The translations under genes and the position numbers were made by a program. From an uncultured delta proteobacterium (GTDB lineage: Bacteria; Desulfobacterota; WTBG01; CAIYCZ01; CAIRTM01), in assembly GCA_963804955.1 (NCBI GenBank), contig CAWDSQ010000011.1, forward strand, positions 1-64,000: a stretch of 64,000 nt of DNA. The letters run 5' to 3'. The notes beneath the pieces were generated by a model, which did no database searches, was not told the origin of the DNA, and saw only the letters and a program-made list of their open reading frames with translations. Shown here one piece after another: positions 6,129 through 60,235 of this stretch. Each line of letters starts with the position of its first letter. The first letter of the stretch is position 1.

Positions 6129-6207
6129 TATTTCTTTTAATATAATAACTTGCTATTATACAATTTATAAAAACCGGCATCCAAAAATTCTTTAGAGGAG
6201 GGGTTCT

Positions 6208-9200
6208 ATGGATTTCAGGAAATCGCTGTTTATTTTTTCCCTTATTAGTTGTGTGTTTCTGCCTTCTTCCGCCCTTGCGCTGCAGTGGGGGGATTTCATC
6301 CTACGAGGTATCTGCCAGCGACAATGTCACCATCACCGGCTATGCCGGGTCGGGCGGCCCTATTTTGTGAATTTTCCCGATACAATAGACGGCAAACCGG
6401 TTGTCTGCATTGGGGCAAACATAGCGACTGGCGCCTGCCTACGGCCAGCTTGGAGTCTATTGTTGACACCACCCGATACGATCCGACAATAAACACCCAT
6501 ATTTCCCCCCCATCCCCTGTCATACAGTTACTGGTCGTCTACTACTGTTTCGGACAATTCAAGCAGGACCTGGGCCCTTTCCTTCTATGACGGCTTTCTG
6601 TACAACAGCCGTAAGAGCAACAGCTTACATGTTCGCGCGATGCGCCGATGCGGCGTTTCGTTATGTGGCTCTTTGGCCCGTTTTGGTTGCGGCCAAATAA
6701 CCAGCGTCCGTCACCATTCCTGACAGCGTACTTACGAGCATGGAAGAAACGCATTTTTCACCCCGGCATATACCAAGCTTGCTGAAGGCTGCATACCCCT
6801 GCCCGACACTGCCGCAACCTGCAGGTTGCATGAGTATGACCAGTTGTAAGTATTGGAAGCGGTGTTACGAGTATTGGGGACCTCAATGTTGCAGACGGTA
6901 CCTAACCGAGTATGATAACAATTCCGAAACCGATGGCGGCTATGAAGGCTTGCGGGCGCAGTACGCGATTTTTGGATTTTATCCGGGCCATGAGCACCGC
7001 ACACTACGGGGGTGTCAGATTGGCGCATGCCAACGGTTCACGAGCTGCATTCAATTGTTGATTATGGTTTAACCAGTATATGACTATTCCGGATAGCGTG
7101 ACGTAGCATTGGGCACCACGCATTTTACACTATTACGGTAGGGCTAGTGTGAAGCCTCCTATGGGCAACGTGTACTACAATTATTAGTCTGAAGACGTTT
7201 ATTTTCGAGCAGTGGTTCGCGTGTGGTGCTTTTCCCCTCGACAAGCGTTACGACCGGAGATGCAACGCAACGTCTGTAACTGCAGCGGCACATCAACAAG
7301 TATCGGCGGTGATATCCGACCAGCGCTACGAGCATTGGACCATGATCGACCACAACAACTACAGCTAGCCCATGTCCGGCTAAAAGGTGTTGTGGGTGCA
7401 CCGGTTTGACCAGTGCGTTAATTCCTGACAGCGTTACGAGCCATTGGTCAGATTGCGTTTTTTCAGTTGTACCGGTATGACTGCGTTGTTATCCCAAGCA
7501 GCGTTACGAGCATTGGGAGACAGGCGTTCTCCAGCTGCACCGGTTGGACCAGCATAAAGTTGATGTAAGCAACGCTGCCTATAGTAGTCCGCAAGATGGT
7601 ATTCTTTACGTAGTCCAAAGCAAAGACAACGCTTGTTGCAATATCCTGCCGGAAAAAAAGATTTGGAGTTTTGATTTGACCAGGACGAGCCGTAATGTGG
7701 AGTTTTGCATGTCGGCAGGGGCACCATGCCTGATAATGTTACTCACATTGGATTTGCGGCTTTTAACTTTTTGCACAGGTTGGACTTGGTTCCCGGAACG
7801 TAACCATACCCGACAGTGTTACGCACATTGGGGATGGTCGCTTTTTCTGATTGCAACGGGATTAGGCCACCGAAAAAATATTGCACATCCTTACGGCTGA
7901 AGGTGATCATCTTTACGCCTTTTTTCTCCAAAGGATGCGATCGGGATAGATCCGGGACCTTTGCGATTTAGCGGAGCTCCGGGCTGACCAGCGTGACTAT
8001 CCCCAAGAGCAGCGTGTACGAGCATTGGGAGTGGTGCATTTGGCAGATGCACTGCATTGACCACTCTCGCGAGTTGGTCCGGTAGCATCAGCGATTATTG
8101 AGAGTGCTACAGTTGCTCCGGTTGCACCGGCTTGAACCAGTGCGACCATCCCAGCTGGTGTTATAAGAATCGGTTCCTAGTCATGTAATAATCTTAGTCT
8201 GGAGAAAATTGAGGTGCATTTGCAGGGTGTACCGGTTTGACCAGTATAACCATACCAAGCAGTGTTACGAGCATGGGTTTTATGCATTTGAAGATTGCAC
8301 CGGTTTAAAAAACGTGACTATTCCGAGCAGTATTGAGAGCATTGAGGATGCTGCATTTGCTGGTCTGCGCTGCTTTAACTGCTGTCATATTTCCTTATGG
8401 GAACGCACCCGTTATGGGGAATGACGTTTTCGCTGACTGCGCGTGAGATGGGCTTTACCGTTTACTGTACTGCCTGCAACACGGGTTTTACAAATCCGTG
8501 GTATGGGTGTTCGGAATTTCATATCAACGCTATCAATTATTGAGTGCTTTGATGCCGCCATCGTCACTTTTTTTAATAAACTCAACAGTTTTTTCGGCAG
8601 CTACCTTGACCCGTCAATTAATGAATTTTTTGACCAGGTGCAGGATGAGGACCTTCGCAACTCATTTAACGGCTGTCTGGCAATTATCCCCACCTTGGGA
8701 AGGTCGGAAATCGTCAGTTCTTTTTTTGATTTTGTGGCACTTTTTGACTGGTTTACTGAAGACATAATCACCGAATATGCTCACCTGTTAAAAGTAAAAA
8801 GCTTTGATACGGTAAAAATTACTGAAAAAACCTCCGGTTGCGATGCTTCACAGTATCTGTCGTTCCGCACCGGCGATGAAGATTCCCATCCTACGGCGGT
8901 GTTTATCCGATCTGTATATCAAAAACACAAGTCCGAATACAATCTGGCTTGCGAGTTACATAGAAGATGAAAAAAAATGGTCATGTGCCGTCGGGTATTT
9001 GGCGAAGAGGTGCCCGGCAAAATGTTCTCGGCGATGACAATACGAATCTTGAACGACTGCGCACAGTTCAGAGACAACACCCTTGCCCAAAGTACTATGG
9101 GACGCAAAGCCATTCAAATTTATTACGAACAATGCCGGACAGTAGGTAAGCATGCCGGCCTTAGAGCGTTAGCAAAGAACCAAATAGTAAGAAAAAAAGC

Positions 9201-9305
9201 ATGCATTCTGATTTAAACGCTTTAAGGGCCGTTGCCCGAAGGGTTCTTGAAGTGATTGCGCCGATGGTGAGCAGGGAAAAAGCAGTAACTCTGCTGGATA
9301 AATAG
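6208..9305 (+). pseudogene. Large secreted BspA-type leucine-rich-repeat surface protein with a CFI-box-CTERM-like C-terminus; heavily frameshifted or garbled
   Basis: GGAGG RBS and signal peptide (ALA-LQWGDF); fragments FPDTIDGKPVV, IPDSVTS(IG), AFEDCTGLKNVTIPSSIESIEDAAF, VDVSNAAYSS..DGILY, YGNAPVMGNDVFADC; C-terminal FRDNTLAQSTMGRKAIQIYY...ALRAVARRVLEVIAPMV. Confidence 0.75.
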
Positions 9306-9696
9306 CAGATCAAGGCAGTGCAAAGGGCCTGCGCATACGGGAAATACCGGTGCGCTACCGGCCCAGAATCGGCACGTCAAAAGTTTCCGGAACGCTTTCA
9401 GGAAGCATCAAAGCGGGCTGCAAAATTCTCTATACTATCGGAAAATACGCCCACACCAAAATCCTCTGAGAAATACTAGTGAGCCTCACTTTATTCGCAA
9501 GTAACGAAAAGGTTTAACTATATAAAATAATGGCGCCGCTTTCTAGATATGGTGGTTAGGACCTTTCTTGAAAAAGTCAACACTACGTGTCATAATCAAG
9601 ACATGCGGTCAGGACAAATTTATTACATATTTGCACTGGTAATATGTAATTGTCCGATCAAGTTGGCAGGGTTTTGATCCGTTGGTCTGAAACGCT

Positions 9697-16620: not shown

Positions 16621-18436
16621 ATGAAGACATACGGGAAGAAACTATATCGGTGCATGGGAATACTGTGTCTTGCTGCGCTCGTCTGCACACTGGCGGCAGG
16701 ATGCACAAGAGATTTGCGTGTTTATGAAACCGTCACGGGCGACGACGGCTCGAAATGGGAGCAGGTGAGCAAGCCCGGTTTTGGCAACAAGAATAACGGG
16801 AGCATCGTCTCCATGGCAGAGTTTCAGGACAGCTTGTATGCCGTCACCAGAAACGATGTGAGCGGATTTGAGCTGTGGCGCACCAGGTTTGGGCGCTGGG
16901 ATAAGGTGAGGATTCCGGGCTTTACGGACAGTGTGTTTCATGACTTGATGATTAATGTCTGGTCTGATCTGATTGTTTTTCAGGATAAGCTCTATGTTGC
17001 CGTTTCCTCCGGCTATCAGGGTTCAAAGCTCTATAAAAGCGTCGGATTTGAAATCTGGCGCTTTGACGGCAAAAATTGGGAGCCTGTCATATCCCATGCC
17101 GCAGGCGCGCAGATTGAAGGAAGAATAAGCGCCATAGCAAGCTGTGCAGCCGGTGACGGCTCTTCAACAGCGGAATTTACGGATTCGGATGCCAGCTGGA
17201 CAGTCGATCAGTACAAGGGCGGCATACTCTGGATTACCTCAGGAGAGGGCAAGGGCCGCGCTTTTGATATTGTCGGAAATACAGCAAACACCCTAACCGT
17301 TCAGCAGAATGAAGCCGCCGGCACGGCCGAGGATACGGTTTGCGACAACCAGACCTTCACCGCAGATCCGCCGTTCCCGCCCTATACCGTGGGGACGATT
17401 GAAACAAGGGATGAATATAAAATTACTAAAGGCGTGACCGCAAACGGCTTCGGCGAGCTGTGGAACAAGAGCATTGTCGATCTTGAAATCTACAAAAACG
17501 AACTCTATGCCTCTGTCGGTTTCAATTATGAAAAGGGCGCCCGCGTCTGGAAATCCGTAGACGGCATGAGCTGGGAACCGTCGTCAGACTACAGCATGGG
17601 CTCCTCTCATGGCTATGACCCTCAGGGAAATCCTTCCGGCGTGTGCCTTATTCCCGGTTTGGAATCCCGCAATGGCCAGCCGGTATCATCAAGTCTTCCG
17701 CGGTTCGGGAAATTCACTGTGGGCGGTGAGGAAATCATGGTTATCGGCGGAACCGGGACCGGCGGCTGCAATGGCAGGGGCGTGCGTATTTTCCGCCTGT
17801 ATGATGCCGAAGGCTGGAAGGCTATTGTGGACTATTTTGTCGATGCTAATGACAACGGCACCAATGAAAACGGCATCGGCGACGATGGGAGCGCGTCAGG
17901 AGGTTTTACCTCTTCGAATTTCCAGGCCTGGAGCTGGGCAGTGTATGATGGCAAACTTTTTACCGGCATGGGCCGGCTTGTCGGCGGCCGCATTCTGTAC
18001 ACACCCAATGCTGATCCGGCAGACGGCAACTGGCAGTATGCCGTGGGCGGCGATTCGGACAAGCCTGGAGGGGCTTGGCTATAATCCAAATATCGTTTTT
18101 AATATTTTTGCCCTGGACAACACGACGCTTGTTGCGGGTACGATAGAGGAAGAAAGCTTTACCAGCGCAGACGTTATTGCCGCACAGCGCGGCGCTGATA
18201 TCTGGTGGGCGACCGGTCCTGCCGGCAGCCTGACCTGGACCCAGGTAACCAGGGATGCTTTTGGTGATGCAACCATAGTTCAGTTTGAATCTCCCCGAAA
18301 GTTTTTCAGCGATCAGTTCTATATCGCAGCGTCAAGCTTCGGGCCGTCAACACCTTTGCCTGCAACGCCAATCTATGGCGCTCGCGAAGGCTATACCGGC
18401 GCTAAAGTATACCGCCTGGCATCTGAATTGAAATAA
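16621..18436 (+). CDS. Lipoprotein, probable beta-propeller (frameshift near 18070)
   Basis: Lipobox LAAGC; repeated blades FQDSLYA, FQDKLYV, YKNELYA, YDGKLFT with W..V...GFG motifs. Confidence 0.7.
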
Positions 18437-30528: not shown

Positions 30529-30813
30529 ATGAAAACCATTTCCATTACTAATGACATTGTTCCTATTGCCGAATTCAAGGTGGGCATCTCCAAGTGGTTC
30601 AAGAGCCTCAAGGTTACCGGTCATCCTTTGATCATTACGCAAAATGGTAAACCAGCCGGCGTACTTTTATCACCGGGCGACTATGACGAGCTGGTATATA
30701 AAAAATCTTTTCTTGATTCCATTGGAAGAGGACTAGCCGATGCTGATAGCGGAAAAACCTATCACACTGAAGAGGTGCGTGCGTCATTAACCGCAAGAAG
30801 GAACAAAGGATAG
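30529..30813 (+). CDS. Phd/YefM-family antitoxin
   Basis: IVPIAEFK...PLIITQNGKPAGVLLS; upstream TTGATT-N18-TATATT promoter-like sequence. Confidence 0.9.
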   Translation: MKTISITNDIVPIAEFKVGISKWFKSLKVTGHPLIITQNGKPAGVLLSPGDYDELVYKKSFLDSIGRGLADADSGKTYHTEEVRASLTARRNKG

Positions 30814-30819
30814 ATCCTG

Positions 30820-31119
30820 ATGAAAATCAGATGGACACATGAGGCCCTTGAGCGATTAATGGAAATTGAAGAGTATATTTCAAAAGACAGTCCGGGCCGT
30901 GCTGTTCAATTTGTTGAAGAACTTATCGAACACGCGGAAGTATTATCTGACAAACCACGTATAGGCAGAATAGTCCCCGAACTTGCCAACCCCGACATAC
31001 GAGAACTGCTATTTAAAAAATATCGTATTGTCTACAGGCTTAAAGCAAACTGCATCGAAATACTAACCGTTTTTGAAGGCCACAGGCTTCTTCGAGTAGA
31101 TGCATTTGATGTTGAGTAG
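30820..31119 (+). CDS. RelE/ParE-family toxin
   Basis: MKIRWTHEALERLMEIEEYI.KDSP, GRIVPE, IRELLFKKYRIVY. Confidence 0.92.
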   Translation: MKIRWTHEALERLMEIEEYISKDSPGRAVQFVEELIEHAEVLSDKPRIGRIVPELANPDIRELLFKKYRIVYRLKANCIEILTVFEGHRLLRVDAFDVE

Positions 31120-33530: not shown

Positions 33531-34327
33531 GCCACCATATTATCGAAGTTTCGGACCTGCGTTACAGCTACCCCGACGGCACGCATGCTTTGCAGGGCAT
33601 TTCATTCAGGGCCGTGCATGGCGAATCGGTGGCCGTTGTGGGGGCTAACGGGGCCGGCAAGTCGACCCTGCTTTTGCACCTGAACGGCTATCTTATGCCG
33701 TTACAGGGCAAAATCCGCATCGGCGATCTGCCTCTTACCAAAAGCACGCTGCAGGAAATCAGGCGCACGGTCGGGATGATTTTCCAGGACCCCGATGACC
33801 AGCTCTTTATGCCCACGGTGTACGATGATGTGGCCTTTGGCCCTCTCAACCTGGGCCTGCCGCTTGACGAGGTCGATATGCGGGTGGCAAAAGCGCTCGA
33901 TCTGGTCGGGGTCCCGCATCTGAAGGACAAGCCGCCCTACCGGCTCTCAGGGGGCGAGAAGCGGCGCGTGGCCATAGCAACGGTCATGTCCATGTCGCCC
34001 GATATTCTGGTGCTCGACGAGCCCACGACAGGGCTTGATCCGCTGGCCCGGCGGCAGCTCATCGGGCTGCTGGGGAATTTTCGCCATACAAAAATTATTG
34101 CAAGCCATGATCTTGACATGGTCGCAGACCTGTGCGAGCGCACTATCGTGCTGCATGAGGGGGCCGTCCGTGCCGACGGCCCCACGGCCGATATTTTCAG
34201 GGACGATGCCCTGCTTGCGGCCTGCCGTCTTGAAAAGCCGCTGTCCATGCAGAAGTGCCCTGTGTGCTCTCCCAGAATAAATAAAGCGTCGTGCCCACAC
34301 ACGACCATCATTGAAGGATTGCCATGA
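33527..34327 (+). CDS. cbiO: ECF transporter ATPase CbiO
   Basis: GANGAGKST, FQDPDDQLF, LSGGEKRR, LDEPT. Confidence 0.93.
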   Translation: MSHHIIEVSDLRYSYPDGTHALQGISFRAVHGESVAVVGANGAGKSTLLLHLNGYLMPLQGKIRIGDLPLTKSTLQEIRRTVGMIFQDPDDQLFMPTVYDDVAFGPLNLGLPLDEVDMRVAKALDLVGVPHLKDKPPYRLSGGEKRRVAIATVMSMSPDILVLDEPTTGLDPLARRQLIGLLGNFRHTKIIASHDLDMVADLCERTIVLHEGAVRADGPTADIFRDDALLAACRLEKPLSMQKCPVCSPRINKASCPHTTIIEGLP

Positions 34328-35575
34328 CGGCATTACGCGGCATTATCGTACTCATGGGCTCGGGAGAGCTCACCTCCACCATGGTAGAGGTGCACAAGGA
34401 GCTGCTGGCGCGCCTCGGGCCTGCGGCAAGGGCGGTCTTTCTGGACACGCCTGCAGGTTTTCAGCTCAATGCCGACCAGCTGTCGCAGAGGGCTGTCGAG
34501 TATTTTAAGACGCATGTGCACCGGGGGCTTGAAATTGCCTCCCTGAAATCCTATGAGACAGGAAGAACCTATGGCGCTGAAAAAGCATTTCAGACGCTGC
34601 GGGCTGCTGACTTTGTTCTCATCGGGCCCGGCAGCCCCACCTATGCCGTGCGGCAGTGGCGCGCAAGCCCGGTACCCGATATTCTGCACAAGCGCATCCG
34701 GGACGGCGCCTGCCTTATCGCGGCAAGCGCAGCGGCCCTTACCGTTGGGGGCTTTACCCTGCCGGTCTATGAAATTTACAAAGTAGGAGAAGACCTGCAC
34801 TGGGTTGAAGGCCTGAACCTGCTCGGGCAGTTCGGCATACAAAGCTGCGGTCATTCCGCACTGGAACAATGCCGAGGGAGGCACGCATGACACGCGATTC
34901 TGCTATATGGGCGAGCCACGGTTCAGGCAGCTTGAAGCGATGCTGCCCCCGGAAGCGCTGGTCATAGGGCTTGACGAGCACACGGCCTGCATCATGGACC
35001 TTGAGCGGGATGAGGCTCTTGTCAGGGGCATAGGCAGGGTCATTGTCCGCACGAGAACCATGGAGGCGGCATTTGCAAAGGGCGAGCGCTTTCCCCTTGC
35101 GCTGCTGCGGGGCGAAACAGCGGCGCATGATCAGCAGTTTGCGCCCCTGCAGGCTGAACCCGTGCAGGAGACGGCGGCACCTCCGCAGGACTCTTTCTGG
35201 CAGCAGGTTCATGGGCTTGAGGACGCTTTCCGGCAGGGGCTTAGCGGAAACTCCTGGGAGGAAACAACAGGCGCGCTGCTGTCTCTTGACGATGCCATCT
35301 GGAAAGCCCACGAGCAGGGCGAAAGCGAGGAATTTATTTCCCAGGCGCGGGAAGCGCTGCGGGACATGCTGGCAGATCTCGGGAAACGGCTGGGCGCAGA
35401 GTCTGCGCATACTGCCCCTGCTGTAGCGCCCCTGGTTGACGGGCTCATTGCGCTGCGCGCCCGGCTGCGCGATGAAAAGAAATGGCAGGAGGCTGACGCG
35501 CTCAGGCTGTGCCTTGAACGCGCGGATATCATGATCGAAGATGCCAAGACGGCCCCCTGGCATGTGCGGCAATAA
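34324..35575 (+). CDS. Peptidase S51/cyanophycinase-like domain fused to a CysRS C-terminal-like domain (frameshift near 34845)
   Basis: LMGSGE, GPGSPTYA, AASAAAL, IPHWNNAEGGTHDTR; C-terminal LIALRARLRDEKKWQEADALRLCL..ADIMIED. Confidence 0.75.
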
Positions 35576-35724
35576 CAGGCTGTTGAAAAACGCTCATCTG
35601 CTGCGTTGCGCTCATAATGCTTCACTGCGGCGTACGAAAAAGTACGCCTCATTACGCATGATTTCGCCTGCATAGCAGGTGTAGAGACAACGCGCCTTGC
35701 ATCTGAGCATTTTTGAACAGCCTG
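35576..35724. mobile_element. MITE family B, copy 3
   Basis: CAGGCTGTTGAAAAACG...TTTTTGAACAGCCTG, directly after a TAA stop. Confidence 0.8.
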
Positions 35725-35775
35725 TATGCATGATTTTTTCAACAACCGGCTAAAGCCGCAGGAGAGGAGATCGGC

Positions 35776-37424
35776 ATGTACGAGCATCCACAGCTTGCTG
35801 TTTTATGCGTAAGCGCTGCGGGAGACAGCAGCCTTGCCGGTTTTGCGGCATATCTCAAAGCGCTGCGGCATGTGCGGCTTGAGACGGCCGAGCAGCTGCC
35901 GCAGGACCTGGCCCCGTACGGAGCCATCATCACCGCCGGTTTTGCTTCATACGCCGCTCATGAAAAAAACCTGACCGATTTCGTGCGCGCAGGAGGCGGG
36001 TGGCTTGCTTTTGCTGTCAATGCAGAGGTGAAGCTTCCGCAGATTTTTGGCGCCACATGCGGGCCTGCCGGGCCTGAGGCCGAGGTCCGGGTTATGTTTA
36101 CCCACAAAAACAATCCTCTGGCTGTGCGGCTGCCCGATGCCGTGTATGTGACCGGCACGTTCAGGCCCCTTGAGCTGTCGGCTGCTGACACGGAGACGGT
36201 TTTATATGCCGACTGGCACTACACACACCAGGCGGTTCTTGTCACCCGAAGGGAAGGCGCTGGCCGCGTTGCCTGCACAACCCTTGCCCCGTTGCGGTAA
36301 TGAGGCGCTGCATCAAATACTTTACCGGGTGCTGCGCCGGCTCGGAGCATGCGCGGACCGGCCTTCGCCTCTTAATGTCGGCATACTTGGTTATGCGCCA
36401 TCGGTCGGCAAGCTCCACGGCTGCGGAGCGGCGGCCACCCCGGGCCTGCACCTGCACGGGGCATGCGATCTGAGCCCTGAACGGCTCGATCAGGCCTGCA
36501 AAGACTTTCCCGGCATTTGCATATATGCAACAAGTGCCGACCTTGCAGCCGACCCCGCCATTGACCTTGTGATTATTGCAACTGCCCCCAACACTCACGC
36601 GAAGCTGAGCATAGAGATGATGACAGGCCGGCAAGCATGTCATCTGCGAAAAGCCTTTAGCCCTCAGCCGGACCGAGACCGATGCCATGCTTGCAGCCGC
36701 TGAAGCAAACAGGGTGCACCTGAGCTGCCACCAGAACAGGCGGTGGGACCAGGATTACCTCGCCATCAGGCAGGCCCTTGCGGCAGGTCTCATCGGCGAC
36801 CTGTTTTATATGGAAACTTTTGTGGGCGGGTTCAGCCATCCCTGCGGCTACTGGCACTCCCATGCCCCGGTTGCGGGCGGCACCAGCTATGACTGGGGCG
36901 GCCATTACCTTGACTGGATCGTGGGCCTCATGCCCGGCCGTATTCAGTCTGTGCGGGCAACCAGCCACAAGCGCGTGTGGCATGATGTGACCAATAATGA
37001 TCAGGAGCGCCTGCAGCTGCGCTTTGCAGACGGCTGCGAGGCCGAGTTCATGCATTCCGATATCGCTGCCGTGCGCAAGCCCAAGTGGTATCTGCTGGGA
37101 ACTGAAGGGGCGATCATCGGCTCGTGGCGGGATGTGGCGGCCTATGAAATCGATCCGGTTCTCTACTATCACCGCCGCGATATACCCCCGACAGAGATGA
37201 CCCCTGAACTGAGCCTGCATCGCCGGGAGCCCTCGGGCCGGATCGTGGCGCGGGCCCTTGATATCGCCCCGCGGCAGGATTTCGGTTTTCACCGCAATAT
37301 CGCCGATCACCTGCTTACGGGCGAGGCCCTTGCAGCGCCCGTTGAAGACTCGGCACACGTCGTTGCCGTGCTTGAAGCTGCGGCGCGCTCCATGGCCCGC
37401 GAGCGGGGCAGAGGAGGTGCTTGA
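35776..37424 (+). CDS. ThuA/GATase-like N-terminal domain + Gfo/Idh/MocA oxidoreductase (two indels)
   Basis: FVRAGGGWL; VGILGY, ATAPNTH, GKHVICEKP (shifted), HQNRRWD, DWGGHYLD. Confidence 0.8.
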
Positions 37425-38452
37425 TGCCTGACCGGGTCAGATGGGGAATTCTCGGCAATGCACACATTGGCCGCACCTGCGTTATCCCGGCCATGCAGAA
37501 GTCGCGAAACTGCGCAGTGCTGCAGCCTGGGAACCAGGAATCCCGCTGCTGCATAGGCTCGTTGCAGGCAGCACGATATCGCGAGCGTCGTTGACGGCTA
37601 TGAAGCCGTGCTTGCCGACCCGGCACTTGATGCGGTCTATATACCTCTGCCCAATCATCTGCACTGCGAGTGGACACTCAAGGCTCTTGCCGCCGGCAAG
37701 CATGTGCTGTGCGAAAAGCCCCTTGCCTGTAATGCCGGGGAGGCCCGGCGCATGGCCGATGCCGCTGAAAAGGCGGGCCTGCTGCTCATGGAGGCTTTCA
37801 TGTACCGGTTTCACCCGCGCACGCAGCGTATCAAACAGCTGGTGAGCGACGGCGCCATCGGCGAGCCGCGGCTGGTGCGCGCCTCGTTTTGCTTCTCCAT
37901 GGATCCGGTCACCCTTGCCGATCCCGGCAACCCCCGGCTCAGGCCGGATACGGGCGGAGGCGCACTGCTTGATGTGGGCTGTTACGGCGTGAGCGTCGGC
38001 GCGGTACTTTTTCGGGTGCGAGCCCGAGGCTGCGCAGGCCCAGGCAATCTATAATGATGCCGGTGCGGATATGCTCTTTGCGGGCACGCTTCAGTTTCCC
38101 GGGCGGCAGGCTGGCAACGGTGGAGGCGGGTTTTACGGCAGCCCTGCAGCAGACCTATGCTATCACGGGCAGCCGTGGCTCTATCGAGCTGCCCCATGAC
38201 GCGTTTATCCCCCGGGAACATGATGCAGCATATACGCTGCGGGGCGAGCATGATGAGAACGGCAGACTTTACAGTGTTGCCGGCGCTGATGAATACCGGC
38301 TCATGGTAGAGCATTTCAGCGACGCGGTGCTGGGGCGCGAGCCCCTTGCTTTTTTGCCCCGGGAAAGCGTCTGCAATATGCAGGCCCTTGACGGGCTGGC
38401 GCGCGCCGCCCGGGATGGTACGGCCATATGCCTGCAGGAATTTCAAGCATGA
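37424..38452 (+). CDS. Gfo/Idh/MocA oxidoreductase (indels)
   Basis: RWGILG, YIPLPNHLH, GKHVLCEKP, EAFMYRFHP, GGALLDVGCY. Confidence 0.88.
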
Positions 38453-39441
38453 ATCAGCCAGGCAGCATCTGCACCGTGACGCGGGTAGCACCGGAGGGCT
38501 TCAAACGCTGCTGGGAGCAGAGCGGCGCCACTCTGGACTGGGCTTGCCCGTTTATGCTGCCGCCGTGGATAACATCATGGCTGCAGCATTTCGGAGCGGG
38601 AAGGGAGCCGCATATTTATCAGGTCAGCGCCGGGGATATGCTGCTCGGCATTGCGCCTCTGCTTGTGGGCGGCGGCACGGCAAGTTTTATCGGCAGCCCG
38701 GACGTGTGCGATTACCTTGATTTCATTGTAGCGCCGGGCATGCACGGGCGGTTTTTTGCAGGCCTCGCCGCACATCTCAGGAAGCAGGGAATCGTCTCGC
38801 TTGATCTGGGCCCGCTGCGGCCTGACTCGGCGGCTTTTGCCTGCTGCAACGGCGCAGCAGCGCAGTTTGCATGCAGCCTGACCAGCGCTGATGAGGATGT
38901 ATCCTATGAGCTTGCGCTTCCGGCGGATTGGGATGCCTATCTGAGCGGGCTTGCCGTGCAGCAGCGCCATGAGGTGCGGCGCAAGCTGCGGCGGCTTGAG
39001 GAGGCGGGGCCGTTTGACTATCGCATCGGGGATTCCCCTGAGGCGATTGATGCTGCCATGGACATGTTTCTGCATCTGTTCACAATAAGCAGGCCGGACA
39101 AAAGGGCTTTTATGACCGCAGCCATGGAAGCATTCTTTCGGAGCCTTGCACGGTCCATGGCAGACTGCGGTCTTTTACGGCTCGGATTTTTAGACATCAA
39201 TGATGGGCCGGCAGCAGCCGTCATGTGCTTTGAGTACAGCGGTACGGTGTATCTGTACAACAGCGGTTTCGACCCGCGGTTCAAGCGCCTCAACGCGGGG
39301 CTTCTGTGCAAGGTTCTCAGCATCCGCGACAGCATCCAGCGCTGCAAAAAGGTGTATGACTTCCTTAAAGGAGACGAACCGTACAAACAGCGCCTCGGCG
39401 GCGGCGTCGTACGGCTTCAGCGGTGCAGGGTGCTGTTATGA
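38449..39441 (+). CDS. GNAT of the CelD/BcsL (Acetyltransf_6, FemAB-like) type
   Basis: W...W..HF, DYLDF, WDAYLSGL...RHEVRRKLRRL, LYNSGFDP, YDFLKGDEPYK. Confidence 0.85.
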   Translation: MNQPGSICTVTRVAPEGFKRCWEQSGATLDWACPFMLPPWITSWLQHFGAGREPHIYQVSAGDMLLGIAPLLVGGGTASFIGSPDVCDYLDFIVAPGMHGRFFAGLAAHLRKQGIVSLDLGPLRPDSAAFACCNGAAAQFACSLTSADEDVSYELALPADWDAYLSGLAVQQRHEVRRKLRRLEEAGPFDYRIGDSPEAIDAAMDMFLHLFTISRPDKRAFMTAAMEAFFRSLARSMADCGLLRLGFLDINDGPAAAVMCFEYSGTVYLYNSGFDPRFKRLNAGLLCKVLSIRDSIQRCKKVYDFLKGDEPYKQRLGGGVVRLQRCRVLL

Positions 39442-39541
39442 ATTCAAAATTGAAGATTCAGAATTCAAAATTTAAGTATTAAATGTAGAGATTGCAGCCT
39501 CGCTCTGTTTTTTTTAATTTTGAATCCGGATGAAGTTAATA

Positions 39542-39625
39542 CGTCGTGCACCCCGGTGAATACCGGGGTCCAGAAAAATCTGATTAATCGCAAAAGACTG
39601 GATACCGGCTTTCGCCGGTATGACG
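39542..39625. repeat. REP-like doublet (GTC..CCCCGG...TCCAG / CTGGATACCGGCTTTCGCCGGTATGAC)
   Basis: Two hairpins in an intergenic region. Confidence 0.6.
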
Positions 39626-39671
39626 GAAAACAAGGAGTCTGCTTTGAAAGACACACAAGCTCAGCATCGCC

Positions 39672-40883
39672 ATGATCAGCATTCATGCGAGCCCCCTGGG
39701 GGCTCTGGGGACACGGGATAACGGCGGCATGAGTGTTTGTGTTCGCGAGCTTGCGCGAGAGCTGGGACGCCGGGGGCACAGGGTTGATATATTCACCAGG
39801 GCTTCCCGGCCATCTGACAAAGACTGTATTGTGCTTGCCGACAATGTGCGGCTTGTGTATTTGAAGGTTCCGAAAGCCTACCGTGCGGCCAAAGATGCGC
39901 TGTTCCCGCATCTGCCTGATTATTTCAAGAGGCTTGAGGCCTTCCGCTTGCGCGAGCGCATTGCATATGACCTGGTGCACAGCAATTACTGGCTCTCGGG
40001 ATGCATCGGCAGCAGGGCCCAGGCATGCTGGAGCGTGCCTCACCTGACGACATTTCATACCCTGGGGCTTTTAAAGAACAGAATCGGCAACGGCCTGCAT
40101 GAGCCGGACCTGCGCATCGCCGCAGAAAAGCAGGTTGCGCAGGACTGCAGCCACATCGTCGTGGGTTCGCGGCGGGAGCGGCAAAACCTCAGCCGCCATT
40201 ATCATGTCGCCAAAAGCAAAATAGGCATAGCGCCCTGCGGTGTGGATTTGAAACTTTTCCGGCCCCTTGGCAGAGCGTATGCCCGGCGGAGGCTCGGGCT
40301 TGACACAGGTGAAAAAATCGTACTGTACGTGGGCCGGTTCGATCCCCTGAAAGGCATCAGCCGTGTTGTCGAGGCCATAGGCTTATTACGGCAGCATCCT
40401 GTGCGTTTTATCATCGCCGGCGGCGACGGACAGGCAAACCCTGAAGTGCGCAAGCTGCAGGCGCTGTCCGGCCGGCTTTCCCTTGACGGCGCTGTCCGGT
40501 TTGTCGGCAGGGTCGACCAGCAGGTGCTGCCCCTGTACTACAGCGCTGCCGATGTGCTTGCCGTGCCCTCGCTGTATGAGAGTTTCGGCATTGTGGCGCT
40601 TGAAGCGCTTGCCTGCGGCACGCCCGTTATCGCAACGCCCGTGGGCGCCATGGACAGCATTATCAGAAACGGCCGCAACGGCCTTATTGTCAAAGGCGAA
40701 ACGCCTGCTGCATTCGCCCGGGCCATTAAAGCCTTGACTGCGACAGGCGCGGCGCCGGTGCCCGCACGGGAGACTGTCAGGGAAACGGTTGCCGGGTACA
40801 GCTGGGCCTGTGCCGCAGACAGCATGCTTGAACAGTACCGGGCCGCAATTGCAGGATACAGCAAGGCGCGGCAGCATACCTGA
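39672..40883 (+). CDS. GT4 glycosyltransferase, MshA-like
   Basis: SIHASPLG..G.RDNGGMSV, VDIFTR, HSNYWLSG, TFHTLG, GRFDPLKG, ESFGIVALEALACGTPV. Confidence 0.88.
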   Translation: MISIHASPLGALGTRDNGGMSVCVRELARELGRRGHRVDIFTRASRPSDKDCIVLADNVRLVYLKVPKAYRAAKDALFPHLPDYFKRLEAFRLRERIAYDLVHSNYWLSGCIGSRAQACWSVPHLTTFHTLGLLKNRIGNGLHEPDLRIAAEKQVAQDCSHIVVGSRRERQNLSRHYHVAKSKIGIAPCGVDLKLFRPLGRAYARRRLGLDTGEKIVLYVGRFDPLKGISRVVEAIGLLRQHPVRFIIAGGDGQANPEVRKLQALSGRLSLDGAVRFVGRVDQQVLPLYYSAADVLAVPSLYESFGIVALEALACGTPVIATPVGAMDSIIRNGRNGLIVKGETPAAFARAIKALTATGAAPVPARETVRETVAGYSWACAADSMLEQYRAAIAGYSKARQHT

Positions 40884-40896
40884 ACGGAGGTTTTGT

Positions 40897-41593
40897 ATGG
40901 CAGCACACGCAGGCATACTCGTAATAGCTCCCCATCCCGATGATATAGAGTTCGGGGCCGCCGGCGCCATTGCCCGCCTCATACAGGAGGGCAAGCAGGC
41001 GGTCTACGCGCTGTGCACCAGCGGCGATAAGGGCACGAGCGACCGGAGCATCACCCCTGAGCAGCTTGCCGGCCATCCGCGAAAGCGAGCAGAAGGCCGC
41101 GGCGCAGGTGATCGGCGTGAGGGAGGTTGTCTTTTTGCGGTATCCCGACCAGGGGCTTGAAGACAGCCCCGCTTTCAGAAAAGATATCGTGCGGCTCATC
41201 AGGCGGTTCAGGCCGGAAACGGTCATGACCTGCGACCCCTATCACCGGTATGTCTATCACCGCGACCACCGCATTGCGGGGCAGGCTGTGCTTGATGCCG
41301 TATTCCCTTTTGCCCGCGATTACCATGCCTACCCTGATCTGATCCAGGAGGGCCTTGAGCCCCATAAGGTGAAGGAACTTTTTTTCTGGGGTTCGGAGAA
41401 TATCAATTACCGCTGCGATATAACTGATACATTTGTGCTGAAACTTGAGGCTCTGCGCTGCCACGCAAGCCAGATCAAGGAGTTTTGCATTCCTGATCTT
41501 GACGCATGGCTGCGCAGCCGCTGCAGCGAGATGGCCACAGGCGAACCCTTCGAGCTTGCAGAAGCATTTCACCGCGCTCTGCTGCCGCCATAA
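40897..41593 (+). CDS. PIG-L family deacetylase (MshB/BshB/Mca-like), frameshift near 41070
   Basis: PHPDDIEFG, TSGDKG, HRDHR, ALRCHASQ. Confidence 0.9.
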
Positions 41594-41916: not shown

Positions 41917-43420
41917 ATGCAGCAGAGTTCCAATTACCATTTCTGCCATGACCTGCCCACAAATCCTCTGCCTGAATTGGGCAGAATACTTGTCACCGGC
42001 GCTACCGGCTATATAGGCGGCCGGCTTGTTCCGGAGCTGCTGGAGCGGGGATACCGGGTTCGGGCTATGGTGCGCGGCATTGCTCCCGAAGTAATTGAGC
42101 GCTGGCCGGGGGTTGAAGTCGCCGTTGCCGATGCGCTGGAGATTGACAGCCTTATGCGGGCACTTGAGGGCGTGCATACCGCCTATTATCTTATTCATTC
42201 TCTGCTGCTCGGCCAGAAAAAGTTTGAATCCGCTGATATTGAAGCAGCCATCAACTTCAGGGAGGCGGCGGAAAAGCAGGGGCTCAAAAGGATCATTTAT
42301 CTCGGGGGGCTTGGCGATGTTCAGTCTGAACTGTCGACTCATCTCAAGAGCAGGATTACGGTTGCGCAGGACGCTGATGCGCGGCACGGTGCCGACAACT
42401 TTTCTGAGGGCTGCCATCATCATCGGTTCCGGCAGCGCCTCGTATGAAATCATCAAGCACCTCGTGCAGAATTGCCCGGTCATTCTTGTGCCGTCATGGG
42501 CACGCACCAAATGCCAGCCGATCGCAATCCGCGATGTCATCAAATATCTCGTCGGCGTACTGGAGAAGCCTGAGGAAACAGCAGGCCGGTCATTTGATAT
42601 CGGGGGCAGCGATATACTGACCTATGAGATGATGCTGAAGACTTTATCCGAGATTCACCTGATAAAAAGACCTTTTATATCATTTCCTCTGAAAACGGTA
42701 AAGCTCTATGCTTACGCCGCCAGCCTCCTGACACCTGTTCCGGCAGCCATCACCATGTGCCTTATGGAGAGCTGCCATAATGATGTTATCTGCCAGAATG
42801 ATGACATACAGCGGATTATTCCTTTTCAGACCATGCCATACCGGGAGGCGCTGGTGCGGGCGATGTCGCGCGAAGAAACTGATAATGTATCCACCAGATG
42901 GTCTGATTCATATCCCCCTGCACACGAGCTTGCCATAAAGCTGAACGAAGTTGAAAGTTTTCCGCTGTACCGTTCAGCCTATTCAATGCTTACCGCAAAA
43001 AAAGCATCATCGCTTTTTGATTCCATAACCAGAATTGGCGGCAAAGAAGGATGGTTTCGCAGCAATCTTCTCTGGCGGATTCGCGGGTGGGGTGACCGGA
43101 TTTTAATGGGTGTGGGCGTATCCCGCGGGAGAAGAAGCTCCGCCACGCTGCGCATCAATGATGTCATAGACTTCTGGCGGGTTGAAGACCTCAGGGAGAA
43201 CGAGCGGCTGCTGCTGCGGGCTGAGATGAAGATGCCGGGCAGGGCCTGGCTTGAGTTTACCATTACGCCCGACACGAAATCTCCGGCACATGTTCTATCG
43301 GTTAATGCGTATTTTCAGGCCCGGAGTTTCTGGGGGAAAATATACTGGTATCTGTTCCTGCCGTTTCACGTATTTATTTTCAACGATCTTATACAGCAGA
43401 TTGAAAAAAGGAGCCTGTAG
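41917..43420 (+). CDS. SDR/NAD(P)-binding + DUF2867 protein (YbjT-like), frameshift near 42370
   Basis: ILVTGATGYIGGRLV, YYLIHS, IIGSGSASYE, QPIAIRDV, DFWRV, AEMKMPGRAWLEF. Confidence 0.9.
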
Positions 43421-51132: not shown

Positions 51133-52369
51133 ATGCGCATCCACTATGGCATTATTATTCTTGGACTGATTGTGTGTTCCGTGTTCAGCGCGCTGGGCCT
51201 GGCGCGTTTTGGCTATACCAGTATCCTGCCCGCTATGCAGGAAGGCCTGCACCTGTCCAACACGCAAACCGGGGCACTGCAAACCTTGAACCTTGTCGGC
51301 TATTTGCTCACGGTGGTCTTTGCCGGCATTTTTGCCGCCCGGTATGGCCCGCGGATTGTTATAGCCTTTTCTCTGCTCATTGTCGGTCTGTCGATGATTG
51401 TAACCGGTCTTGTTCCAACGGTTGAAGCCGCCTGTATCGGCCGCTTTTTCGCCGGCGTGGGCGGAGCTGGCGGAAATGTTCCGGCCATGGGCCTTGTGTC
51501 GGCATGGTTCGGAGCCAGGAGGCGCGGCCTTGCCTCCGGTGTGGGCGTCACCGGGTCGAGCGTCGGGCTGATTGTGACGGGGCCGCTTATCCCTGCAATT
51601 TTAAATCAGTATGGTCCCGGGGGCTGGCGGATCAGCTGGTATGTGCTTGGAGCTCTCTCTCTTGCTGTGTGCGCTCTATGCGCTGTATTTTTGCGCAACC
51701 ACCCTGCGGAGAAGGGGCTCAAGCCCGTCGGCGAAAATGAAGCTGAATGCATACAACGCAACAAGCGGGGCCGGCGCCCCGTCTTTGCATTGGAATCTGA
51801 TCTGGAGATCGCGCCTGCTGTGGCAGCTTGCCGCGATCTACTGCGCTTTCGGGTTTTCCTATATCATCTATTCCACCTTTTTTGTCAGGCATCTGGTGAA
51901 AGACGGCGGCTTTACGCCTGGCGGCGCCGGGTCTCTCTGGATGCAAATCGGCATGGTTTCAATGATCAGCGGCTTTATCTGGGGCAGCGTCTCTGATCGC
52001 TGGGGGCGGCGCATGGCGCTGCTGTGCGTCTTCACGCTGCAGGGCGTATCGTTTGCTGTTTTCGGCCTGAGCACCCACGTGACCGCCGTTTATTTTTCCT
52101 CTGCATTGTTTGCATTGACCGCATGGAGCATCCCTGCCCTGATGGCCGCCCTTGCCGGCGACGTGTTTGGCGCTCGACTGGCCCCTGCTGCCCTTGGCCT
52201 GATGACAATCGTCTTCGGCATCGGGCAGGCGCTGGGTCCGTATTTCGCCGGCGCTGTTGCGGATGCCACACAATCGTTTTCAACAGCTTTTGTGATAGCC
52301 GGGATAGTCGCACTGGTCTTCGGCACAGGCGGGTCGCTTTTTTTGAGAACGTCAAAAGGCGTCACGTGA
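51133..52369 (+). CDS. MFS transporter (YbfB/YjiJ-like), frameshift near 51770
   Basis: GLARFGYTSILPAM, AWFGARRRGLA, GSVSDRWGRR; about 12 TM segments. Confidence 0.88.
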
Positions 52370-58305: not shown

Positions 58306-58599
58306 TGCCTTAAAATAACTGAAAACAGTATTAAATGCACATTAAAATAAATTCATATATCCCGCTCTACACAGTGGGCCACGGAGGTCTGCTTATGAAA
58401 CCAAGCAAGTGAAAGGTTTATTTTTCATCTTATATGTTTTTAAATGTGTTTTGAAGTAAAAATTTGCCCGTATTAAAAAAGATTAACTTGAATACAATAT
58501 GTAATTCATTTAAACATAACATTCTAAACATAAAAAATAGCTGCGCCAACAGTGGTTGCTGCATAGGGAGGCTGCATAGGGACTCCACAGGGGAAACGC

Positions 58600-60235
58600 A
58601 TGTGGCCTATCATGAAAAATATAAAAGTTATAGCTTTGCTGACACTGTTCGGCGCCGTTATGCTCGGCAACCTGGGCGGTTGGGAGCTGCAAAGGCGCAG
58701 ATGAGCCACGGTATGCACAGATTGCCCGTGAAATGCGCGAAACGGGCCAGTATATCGTTCCGCATCTCAACGCTGAGATTTATCCTGACAAGCCGCCGCT
58801 GTTTTTCTGGCTCATGGCTCTTGCGGCAGTGCCCTCAGGCGATGTATCGGCTTTCGAGGCACGCCTGCCTGCGGTCCTTGCCGGGCTTGGCCTCATTCTG
58901 CTCACCTATCTGTTTGCAGCCCGGCTTTTTGACTCCGGCACAGGGCTGCTTGCAGCCGGGGTGCTTTTCTGCTGCGAGCAGTTTTTCAGCACCACCACCA
59001 GCTCACATTTCGACACGATACTGGCATTCTGGACAACGCTTAGCCTGCTGCTTTTTTATATCGGCTATACCCGTATCGAAAAGGGGAAACCATATATGCT
59101 CGGGGCCTATGCCGCCATGGGCGGTGCGCTGCTCACGAAAGGTCCCGTTGGGCTGGTCGTACCGCTTGCGTCCATGCTGCTTTTTGTCCTGGCCAGAAAA
59201 GAGTTCGGCCGCATAAAAGACCTGCATATCGGTCAAGGGGCTTATTATCGCCGTGGGCATCATTGCCGCCTGGCTCATTCCCGCATGCATAATGGGGGGC
59301 GACACCTATACGCAGAATATACTTTTTAAGCAGACTGTGGGCCGCACTGTTGAATCTTTCGCGCATAACGAGCCTTTCTATTATTATTTTCTCGGGCTTC
59401 CCTGTTGATTTTCTCCCCTGGAGCTTGTTTGTGCCCGCTGCCGCCATTATTTCTGGAAATACCGCAGCCGGAACAAGGATATACTGCTGCCGCTTGTCTG
59501 GTTTGCTTTTACCTTTGCCATGTTTACTCTTGTTTCCGGCAAGCGCAACCTGTACCTGCTGCCCCTGTATCCGGCAGCGGCCATGCTCATGGCCAAATTT
59601 TTTACTGACTGTATCCGCAGTGATGAGATGTTTGCCAGGCTTTCCCGCTCGAAGCTTTTCATGGTTCCATGCTATATTATAGCCGGTGCTGTTCCTGCTG
59701 CAGGGTTGGCAGGCATTATCATGCTTATCGGCAATATCGGGCCGGTGAAAAACTTGAGGCCGGCAGATGGGTGCTGTTTGTCGCTGCCTGCGCCGCTTGT
59801 GCTGCGGGGGCTGTCTGGTTGCGCAAGCGGCAGGAACTGAAGCTTGTGAGGCGCTTGCCGTATTTGATCGTTGCCTGTACGACGCTTGTGTATGGGCTTT
59901 TTGTGGGCGTTATGCTTCCTGCCTGGCGAGGAAAGGCCGGAGCATGCATTTTGCGAACAATAGCGTAAGACGGTCGGCCCGAGGATAAGCTGTATGCCAC
60001 TTTTTCGCCGTATTTTTTTAATTATTTTCTGCACCGCTACCCGATCCCGGAACTGCGCGATGAGGCGATGATCCGAAAGCTTCTTGATTCGCCGGAGAGG
60101 GTTTACTGCCTTGCAAGGGAAAAAGATTATGCCAGGCTGCCCGATGATATTAAAAGCATGATAACGGTGCTGGAGAAAGAAACGATCGGCCATAAAATTT
60201 TTTACCTGCTTGTCAATACCCCCCCCACACAATGA
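58600..60235 (+). CDS. ArnT/PMT (GT83/GT39-type) membrane glycosyltransferase, several indels
   Basis: DEPRYAQIAREMRETG.Y.VPHLN...YPDKPPLFFW, LTKGPVG, FLPWS, GKRNLYLLP.YPA. Confidence 0.88.

Follow-up and report, generated by a model that had tools for sequence, protein, structure and literature searches.

How might an anaerobic bacterium complete a mycothiol-like pathway when the enzyme that ligates cysteine is missing from it? The question is raised by six genes at positions 34324-41593, forward strand, of a stretch of 64,000 nucleotides (the window hereafter) from contig CAWDSQ010000011.1 of assembly GCA_963804955.1, which belongs to an uncultured delta proteobacterium of the Desulfobacterota. 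Mycothiol, characteristic of the Actinomycetota, depends on Ino1, MshA, MshA2, MshB, MshC and MshD. A preliminary description of the window, made from its letters, had proposed that the six genes may form a new pathway for a sugar-amino acid conjugate or a low-molecular-weight thiol in which a tRNA-dependent GNAT, helped by a domain like the C-terminal end of cysteinyl-tRNA synthetase (CysRS), replaces MshC. Our analysis leads to a related reading, which we hold with about as much belief as doubt: the cluster would encode a pathway of the mycothiol/bacillithiol type, most likely for a Cys-GlcN-inositol-type thiol (GlcN, glucosamine) or a close variant of it, made by means of Cys-tRNA.

The open reading frames (ORFs), together with Pfam and NCBIfam searches, bore out the co-orientation, the extent and the domains of the six genes as first described. 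Four of them are broken in frame, which had gone unmentioned. The genes, with the short names used below, are as follows.

34324-35575, + strand: S51 domain (cyanophycinase/PepE-like) with a CysRS anticodon-binding tail, S51-CysC; one +1 frameshift at about 34840; assigned by Pfam, PDB-sequence profile and predicted fold
35776-37424, + strand: ThuA-like domain with a Gfo/Idh/MocA dehydrogenase, ThuA-Gfo; +1 frameshifts at about 36290 and 36625; assigned by Pfam/NCBIfam
37421-38452, + strand: second Gfo/Idh/MocA dehydrogenase, sugar ketoreductase/GFOR-like, Gfo2; +1 frameshifts at about 37490, 37998 and 38093; assigned by Pfam/NCBIfam
38428-39441, + strand: Fem-type double-GNAT transferase (Acetyltransf_6), GNAT; intact; assigned by Pfam, predicted model and Foldseek
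39672-40883, + strand: MshA-like GT4 glycosyltransferase, GT4; intact; TIGR03449, 305 bits
40897-41593, + strand: PIG-L/LmbE deacetylase with BshB1/BshB2 as closest models, PIG-L; +1 frameshift at about 41068; assigned by Pfam/NCBIfam

The candidate for the ligation step is the GNAT. Its Pfam family is Acetyltransf_6 (112.5 bits), and FemAB_like matches at 16.5 bits, under the cut-off of 27. The predicted model (pLDDT 92, pTM 0.89) has a double-GNAT, FemX-like fold. The top Foldseek matches were Sbb17 and Sba18, aminoacyl-tRNA-dependent peptide synthases whose substrate is streptothrisamine, a compound with an amino sugar (E 2e-12), followed by FemX, FemA and MprF-type aminoacyl-lipid synthases, the whole set giving E values of 2e-12 to 1e-9 and TMq of 0.55-0.66. 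The CoA-dependent tandem GNATs superposed worse (TMq 0.36-0.51). The nearest solved folds are thus aminoacyl-tRNA-dependent transferases and not CoA-dependent tandem GNATs, in line with what had been supposed of this protein, and by its modelled fold the GNAT is probably an aminoacyl-tRNA-dependent transferase. Sequence identity to Sba18, Sbb17 and the FemABX-type structures is only 9-15%, and a profile of the GNAT run against PDB sequences gave no match at E up to 1. A lysine-rich motif near the C-terminus, FLKGxExYK, is invariant in the family and lies roughly at the place of Lys305 of FemX, by approximate position only. In a review (PMC12945691), FemX is described as using Lys305, and Orf11, which is related to Sba18 and Sbb17, as transferring glycine from Gly-tRNA onto streptothrisamine. 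That glycyl transfer by a Fem-like enzyme is a precedent for the tRNA-dependent acylation of an amino sugar amine.

The two genes that follow resemble enzymes of known thiol pathways. Among the family models, the MshA model TIGR03449 was the best for GT4, with 305 bits for the window protein, 367 for its orthologue at L001 (a locus on the complete chromosome of a metagenome-assembled genome, MAG, which served as reference for the frame alignment) and 323 for that at L056, the next family giving 124-132 bits (126 for the window protein). The models of sucrose-phosphate synthase (SPS) gave 91-119 bits, of BshA 97-116 (cut-off 273.7, not reached) and of GlcNAc-PG synthase (GlcNAc, N-acetylglucosamine) 83-103; PimA matched at 50 bits. 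The best solved relative of GT4 is MshA of C. glutamicum (3c4q/3c4v, 243.6 bits; BshA, 64). MshA residues K78, Y110, H133, T134 and R154 are retained in the alignment; they are presumably the contacts of inositol phosphate. From its sequence, GT4 can safely be taken to act on a phosphorylated acceptor. In SPS, according to PMC7264703, Arg105 and Arg178 bind the phosphate of the acceptor and His158 binds the transferred glucose. The best models for PIG-L are BshB1 and BshB2; the L001 protein scored 109 bits with BshB1 and 58 with MshB (TIGR03445), under the cut-off of 224.

The genome assembly of the window, 87.4% complete, was then considered for inositol and thiol genes. It has ino1 (PF01658, 111.6 bits at G000:C24:121065-121403, within an open frame of 461 amino acids), and no MshC, BshC (cut-off 265.8; no match), GshA or GshB was found in it; this agrees with the genomic picture expected for a pathway that dispenses with MshC. 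The only CysRS-like gene scored 311 bits against the MshC model TIGR03447, whose cut-off is 485.1, besides a fragment of 19.5 bits. Across 201 sampled genomes from the phylum (GNAT called at E <= 1e-40, overlaps tallied by hand, related genomes not being independent), the GNAT is present in 35 and ino1 in 33 of these 35, versus 88 of the 166 genomes that lack the GNAT. The two GNAT-positive genomes without ino1 are G155 (85% complete) and G186. A distant GNAT match lies 1-2 kb from ino1 in six genomes from two other families of the phylum. In all four loci of this kind that were fetched (L092 at 6155-9535, L093, L094 and L095), a distant GNAT-GT4 pair of about 30% identity stands beside ino1, no PIG-L being present in the fetched stretch; in L092 the pair is divergent from the inositol-3-phosphate synthase gene and its GT4 is still best against MshA.

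Which of the six genes belong together was answered by their conservation. Relatives of the GNAT number in the thousands, with identities of about 50%, and a GTDB scan with one genome per species yielded at least 571 of them among 596 pattern matches. The loci of the best 80 of these at least 571 were analysed; the MAGs in which they lie are assigned to Desulfobacterales/Deltaproteobacteria, Dehalococcoidia/Chloroflexota, Bacillota and Poribacteria. Neighbours were assigned by tblastn of the window pieces and by clustering of all ORFs of the loci, counting downstream genes in loci where 4 kb or more of sequence follows the GNAT and upstream genes in those where 4.5 kb or more precedes it. Downstream, GT4 was found in 22/23 Desulfobacterota and 21/25 Chloroflexota loci, PIG-L in 17/23 and 24/25, an MshD-like double GNAT in 5/23 and 15/25, and a GloB-like metallo-β-lactamase (MBL) hydrolase in 8/23 and 20/25. 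Upstream, S51-CysC was found in 18/21 Desulfobacterota and 0/20 Chloroflexota loci, and Gfo genes in 12/21 and 0/20. From these counts of flanking genes, the conserved core is GNAT, GT4 and PIG-L, and it is strongly co-conserved, so that the predicted synteny of the gene set holds; S51-CysC and the two Gfo genes are accessory additions of the Desulfobacterota, not a general replacement for MshC. The synteny of the core extends to Desulfobacterota, Chloroflexota and Bacillota, and all six genes stand in the order of the window in 6 of the 14 Desulfobacterota loci whose flanks are both long enough.

The company kept by the core in relatives is also informative. The MshD-like protein (305 amino acids) has TIGR03448 as its best family, at 86 bits over the full length (cut-off 163), and the GloB-like hydrolase (213 amino acids) has GSH_gloB, at 94-102 bits (cut-off 201). 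Phosphatases are among the Desulfobacterota neighbours, a histidine phosphatase (His_Phos_1) in 7 loci and one of HAD type in 6; no phosphatase gene was seen beside the cluster in the window. Two related Dehalococcoidia genomes have their housekeeping CysRS gene some 9-12 kb away from the GNAT/PIG-L cluster (G001:C1:1895152-1895295 and G005:C7:40124-40501); the distance is too loose and the cases are too few, and we discounted it as a link.

The protein that opens the cluster in Desulfobacterota bears on the identity of the amino acid. Its intact orthologue has 417 amino acids (L001:3943-5196). The S51 family PF03575 scored 19.9 bits with the window pieces and up to 22.7 with the orthologue included, just below its cut-off of 23.9, and PF23493 (CysS_C) scored 24 to 29 bits, over its cut-off of 23. 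In a profile comparison with PDB sequences, residues 6-257 aligned with the cyanophycinase-like peptidase 6nqc, with matching Ser, His and Glu motifs: S135, H179 and E218 are invariant in 20 orthologues and align with GcSAGA, PHfn and DEvT of 6nqc, and we take them to be the catalytic triad. When the protein was modelled (pLDDT 78.6), its structure could be superposed on those of 6nqc, PepE and cyanophycinase with TMt of 0.69-0.82, the value of 0.82 being that for 6nqc, and with Ser, His and Glu aligned; the N-terminal part is thus of S51 fold. Residues 290-414 align with the last 120-130 residues of CysRS (8qhp, E 3e-9), and with 339-459 of the E. coli enzyme (1li5/1u0b, the latter being the complex with tRNA-Cys); Foldseek gave a weak match to 1u0b (E 2e-3). 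Profile and Foldseek thus match the tail to the C-terminus of CysRS in both sequence and fold, and the C-terminal domain noticed at the outset proves to be about 125 residues that align with the anticodon-binding end. No catalytic core of an aminoacyl-tRNA synthetase is present in the protein. Its family has at least 7998 matches under generic names ('peptidase E', 'Type 1 glutamine amidotransferase-like', 'CysS/YqeB C-terminal domain-containing'), and no characterised example of an S51 domain fused to a CysRS tail was found.

In the phylum sample S51-CysC is present in 24 of the 201 genomes, 20 of which also have the GNAT. Since the two genes lie on different contigs in 10 of these 20 genomes, their co-occurrence goes beyond a shared neighbourhood. 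A stand-alone Peptidase_S51 gene (about 242 amino acids) lies directly upstream of the S51-CysRS-tail gene in L067 (3186-3911) and in nine other Desulfobacterota loci. A protein atlas includes clusters that look like S51-CysC and have Chloroflexota or Actinomycetota as their commonest known phylum.

The two dehydrogenases have intact orthologues of 575 amino acids (ThuA-Gfo, L001:5259-6986) and 337 amino acids (Gfo2, L001:6976-7989). The nearest solved relatives of the first are uncharacterised oxidoreductases and DgpA, and those of the second are GFOR, sugar 3-ketoreductase and anhydrofructose reductase.

From these assignments a route can be proposed. Ino1, encoded elsewhere in the genome, would make inositol phosphate, to which the MshA-like GT4 would add GlcNAc from UDP-GlcNAc. 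A phosphatase would then take off the phosphate, HAD or histidine-phosphatase genes adjoining the cluster in some relatives, and the PIG-L enzyme would take off the acetyl group. On the sugar amine thus exposed, the Fem-type GNAT would place an amino acid from aminoacyl-tRNA, replacing the ATP-dependent MshC or BshC. Two further parts are proposed for the Desulfobacterota: the S51-CysRS-tail protein is a probable binder of tRNA-Cys and would serve as escort, proof-reader or deacylase, and ThuA-Gfo and Gfo2 probably epimerise one hydroxyl of the sugar or cyclitol; that they do so by oxidation and then reduction is a reasonable guess by analogy. The editing or recycling amidase first suggested for the S51 domain is likewise a guess. 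Cysteine as the amino acid is suggested by the CysRS tail, by the GloB-like and MshD-like genes that accompany the core in relatives and by the finding of no other thiol pathway, none of the three being proof of it. A more specific form of this proposal is possible and we advance it tentatively, with more doubt than the general one: Desulfobacterota, Dehalococcoidia and some Bacillota would make an undescribed thiol with a Fem-type transferase that moves cysteine from Cys-tRNA-Cys onto glucosaminyl-inositol, and in sulfate reducers a protein of serine-hydrolase type would read the anticodon of tRNA-Cys and escort or proof-read the donor.

Several results weigh against a cysteine-containing thiol made in this way. 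None of the pathway proteins reaches the curated cut-off of the corresponding equivalog in mycothiol or bacillithiol synthesis. For GT4 of the window, L001 and L056 the MshA equivalog cut-off of 462.5 bits is not reached, N25 of MshA is replaced by Ser in the window protein, and SPS of Thermosynechococcus (TeSPS, 6kih) is nearly as close as the best solved MshA, with 236.8 bits. The likeness to MshA first noted for this enzyme is thus clear by profile and much less so by pairwise comparison, and, as the SPS structure is nearly as close, the conserved basic residues of GT4 may only indicate a phosphorylated acceptor. Many genomes of the phylum have ino1 in any case (121 of the 201). The GNAT family Acetyltransf_6 includes CoA-dependent enzymes, and in NCBIfam the GNAT matches only a crotonyl transferase, which depends on CoA, at 35 bits. 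In the genome of the window no orthologue was found of the MshD-like gene (best 30 bits) or of the GloB-like gene (best 50 bits) of relatives, and no tRNA-Cys gene was found in any of the 52 loci or in the window. On this side of the argument the CysRS tail is counted as the sole pointer to cysteine, and that tail is not exclusive to tRNA synthetases, because the NCBI name includes 'CysS/YqeB C-terminal domain-containing'. Moreover, S51-CysC and the Gfo genes are missing from 5/5 Dehalococcoidia genomes, in which the only such tail is that of CysRS itself and carries no S51 domain, and from 20/20 Chloroflexota loci; S51-CysC is consequently not a general part of what replaces MshC. What was established directly is gene content, conservation, folds and co-occurrence; the chemistry, the product and its thiol nature, the amino acid and the use of tRNA are each inferred.

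The main rival to the thiol reading follows the same route up to GlcN-inositol, where the Fem-type enzyme would attach either some amino acid that is not cysteine or an acyl group carried by CoA, giving a non-thiol solute, a signal or an antibiotic-like pseudodisaccharide. Nothing in the core of GNAT, GT4 and PIG-L specifies cysteine, and the absence of the CysRS-tail protein from the Chloroflexota loci, the crotonyl transferase match and the closest solved fold, Sba18/Sbb17, which serves antibiotic synthesis and uses glycine, are all as such a product would have it. Pairs of GT4 and PIG-L also start aminoglycoside synthesis. We nevertheless judge this rival unlikely in view of the GloB-like neighbours of thioester-hydrolase type and the MshD-like neighbours, the strong co-occurrence of the GNAT with a protein bearing a CysRS anticodon-binding tail, the very wide, housekeeping-like spread of the family across phyla at about 50% identity and the finding of no other thiol route in the genome.

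We consider it improbable, and less likely than the main rival, that the genes build the head group of a membrane glycolipid. Here GlcNAc would be placed on phosphatidylinositol or a lipid like it and deacetylated, in the manner of PIG-A and PIG-L in GPI anchors, and then aminoacylated in the manner of MprF on phosphatidylglycerol. Such a lipid would also need ino1; PIG-L is named after a step of glycosylphosphatidylinositol synthesis, domains of MprF and aminoacyl-phosphatidylglycerol synthases are among the fold matches of the GNAT (TMq 0.55-0.61), and GT4 has the matches to GlcNAc-PG synthase and PimA given above. However, GT4 fits the soluble MshA three times better than any model of a lipid-acting GT4, no membrane protein or flippase was found co-conserved among the neighbour families, and the phosphatase neighbours suit a soluble sugar-phosphate intermediate.

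The ORFs of the GNAT and GT4 are the only intact ones among the six in the window sequence. When the intact L001 proteins, all six of which are encoded by single open frames, were aligned to the window, seven frame changes appeared in 7.3 kb, all of them +1 and spread over the other four genes as listed above. In public short-read contigs that are 90-99% alike, exactly one base is missing at 34839/40, 36623/4, 38095 and 41073; these similar contigs, not identified as reads of the source organism itself, cover four of the seven sites among the matches listed, with none listed for the other three. The cluster pieces are 50-68% identical to L001, on a par with the intact genes. Since the independent contigs lack the extra base, the pieces remain L001-like and other genes of the window are split alike, the seven breaks are most likely single-base assembly (consensus) errors, not decay. 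An alternative genetic code was ruled out, the breaks being frame changes and not in-frame stops. A count of staggered pairs of ORFs, too noisy in GC-rich DNA to carry weight, gave 14 in the 7.8 kb of the cluster, where the genome as a whole has 41 per 100 kb and control loci have 27. Staggered overlapping ORFs on the same strand, which look like single-base frame errors, were also seen at 41917-43420, 16621-18436, 51133-52369 and 58464-59329; at the first of these an NmrA-type NAD domain ends at 103 of 184 model positions and DUF2867 follows in another frame.

That the cluster is instead a decaying remnant with seven real frameshifts and no product, as the crowding of breaks, the excess of staggered pairs over the genome average by that noisy count and the two repeat elements inserted between its genes might suggest, is very improbable, each break being a single-base +1 event with no further damage, the extra base being missing from closely similar contigs at four of the seven sites, and the pieces retaining the identity of intact genes in a window where further genes are split in the same manner.

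Two repeats lie between genes of the cluster:

35576-35735, no strand: dispersed repeat of about 150 bp with inverted ends; blastn within the genome and contig depth
39545-39630, no strand: core of a second short dispersed repeat; blastn within the genome and contig depth

The cbiMQO transporter operon lies upstream, the stop of cbiO overlapping the ATG of S51-CysC, and an NmrA/DUF2867 gene and then a CNNM/CorC gene lie downstream. The genes had been called partly overlapping, which is correct for three junctions (cbiO/S51-CysC, ThuA-Gfo/Gfo2 and Gfo2/GNAT); the gaps at 35576-35775 and 39442-39671 contain the repeats. The first repeat, with ends CTGTTGAAAAA...TTTTTGAACAG, separates S51-CysC from ThuA-Gfo; it has 25 blastn matches in the genome, with a coverage of about 20 across the element, and contig depth is very high in the bin 35539-35781 in four metagenome runs. 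The second, in the spacer between GNAT and GT4, has 11 blastn matches, and the depth is high in the bin 39427-39669 in the same four runs. The copy of the GNAT in the collection begins at the second ATG, at 38449 (330 amino acids). A Phd/YefM antitoxin and ParE toxin pair is located at 30529-31119, just upstream of the cbiMQO operon.

How the proposed pathway compares with known systems can now be stated. As in mycothiol synthesis, Ino1 is present, MshA is both the best family and the best solved relative of GT4, PIG-L follows GT4, and an MshD-like double GNAT occurs in the loci of relatives. Unlike in mycothiol synthesis, no MshC was found and a Fem-type double GNAT stands in the operon instead, the proteins are all below the equivalog cut-offs, the hosts are anaerobic Desulfobacterota, Chloroflexota and Bacillota, and the Desulfobacterota clusters add the S51-CysRS-tail protein and two Gfo dehydrogenases. 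With bacillithiol (BshA, BshB, BshC) the cluster shares the logic of a GT4 and a PIG-L enzyme, the latter with BshB1/BshB2 as best models, and in genomes without an MshD-like gene the product, if its cysteine amine is left free, would be similar to bacillithiol; GT4, however, reaches only 97-116 bits against BshA, BshC was not found in the genome, and as acceptor a phosphorylated cyclitol is likelier than malate. The GNAT has the double-GNAT fold of the FemABX-type and streptothrisamine glycyl transferases (Orf11, Sba18, Sbb17), its top Foldseek matches, but differs from the latter in a widespread distribution like that of primary metabolism, not of antibiotic clusters. The N-terminal 260 residues of S51-CysC superpose on the S51 enzymes 6nqc, PepE and cyanophycinase (the family of cyanophycinase and dipeptidase E), and its C-terminal 125 residues resemble the anticodon-binding domain of CysRS, whose catalytic core it lacks. 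In the literature we found no published description of the GNAT-GT4-PIG-L gene set. For its Desulfobacterota form the new elements are the diagnosis of the frameshifts, the co-occurrence with ino1 and S51-CysC, the distant pair adjacent to ino1, the phosphatase and second S51 neighbours and the fold of S51-CysC.

Sediments and aquifers are rich in sulfate-reducing Desulfobacterota and in Dehalococcoidia, two groups of importance to sulfur cycling, dehalogenation and mercury methylation. To our knowledge, no major low-molecular-weight thiol has been described for Desulfobacterota, Dehalococcoidia and some Bacillota, and we know of no small thiol assigned to the buffering of redox stress in the sulfate-reducing Desulfobacterota and Dehalococcoidia. 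The gene set is a concrete candidate for a thiol pathway of three to six genes in these organisms. If the Fem-type enzyme does use Cys-tRNA, the synthesis of a cofactor would join what charged tRNA is known to do outside the ribosome. For a redox cofactor, synthesis that depends on tRNA would be a first, and the enzyme would be an independent third solution to the ligation of cysteine, beside MshC and BshC.

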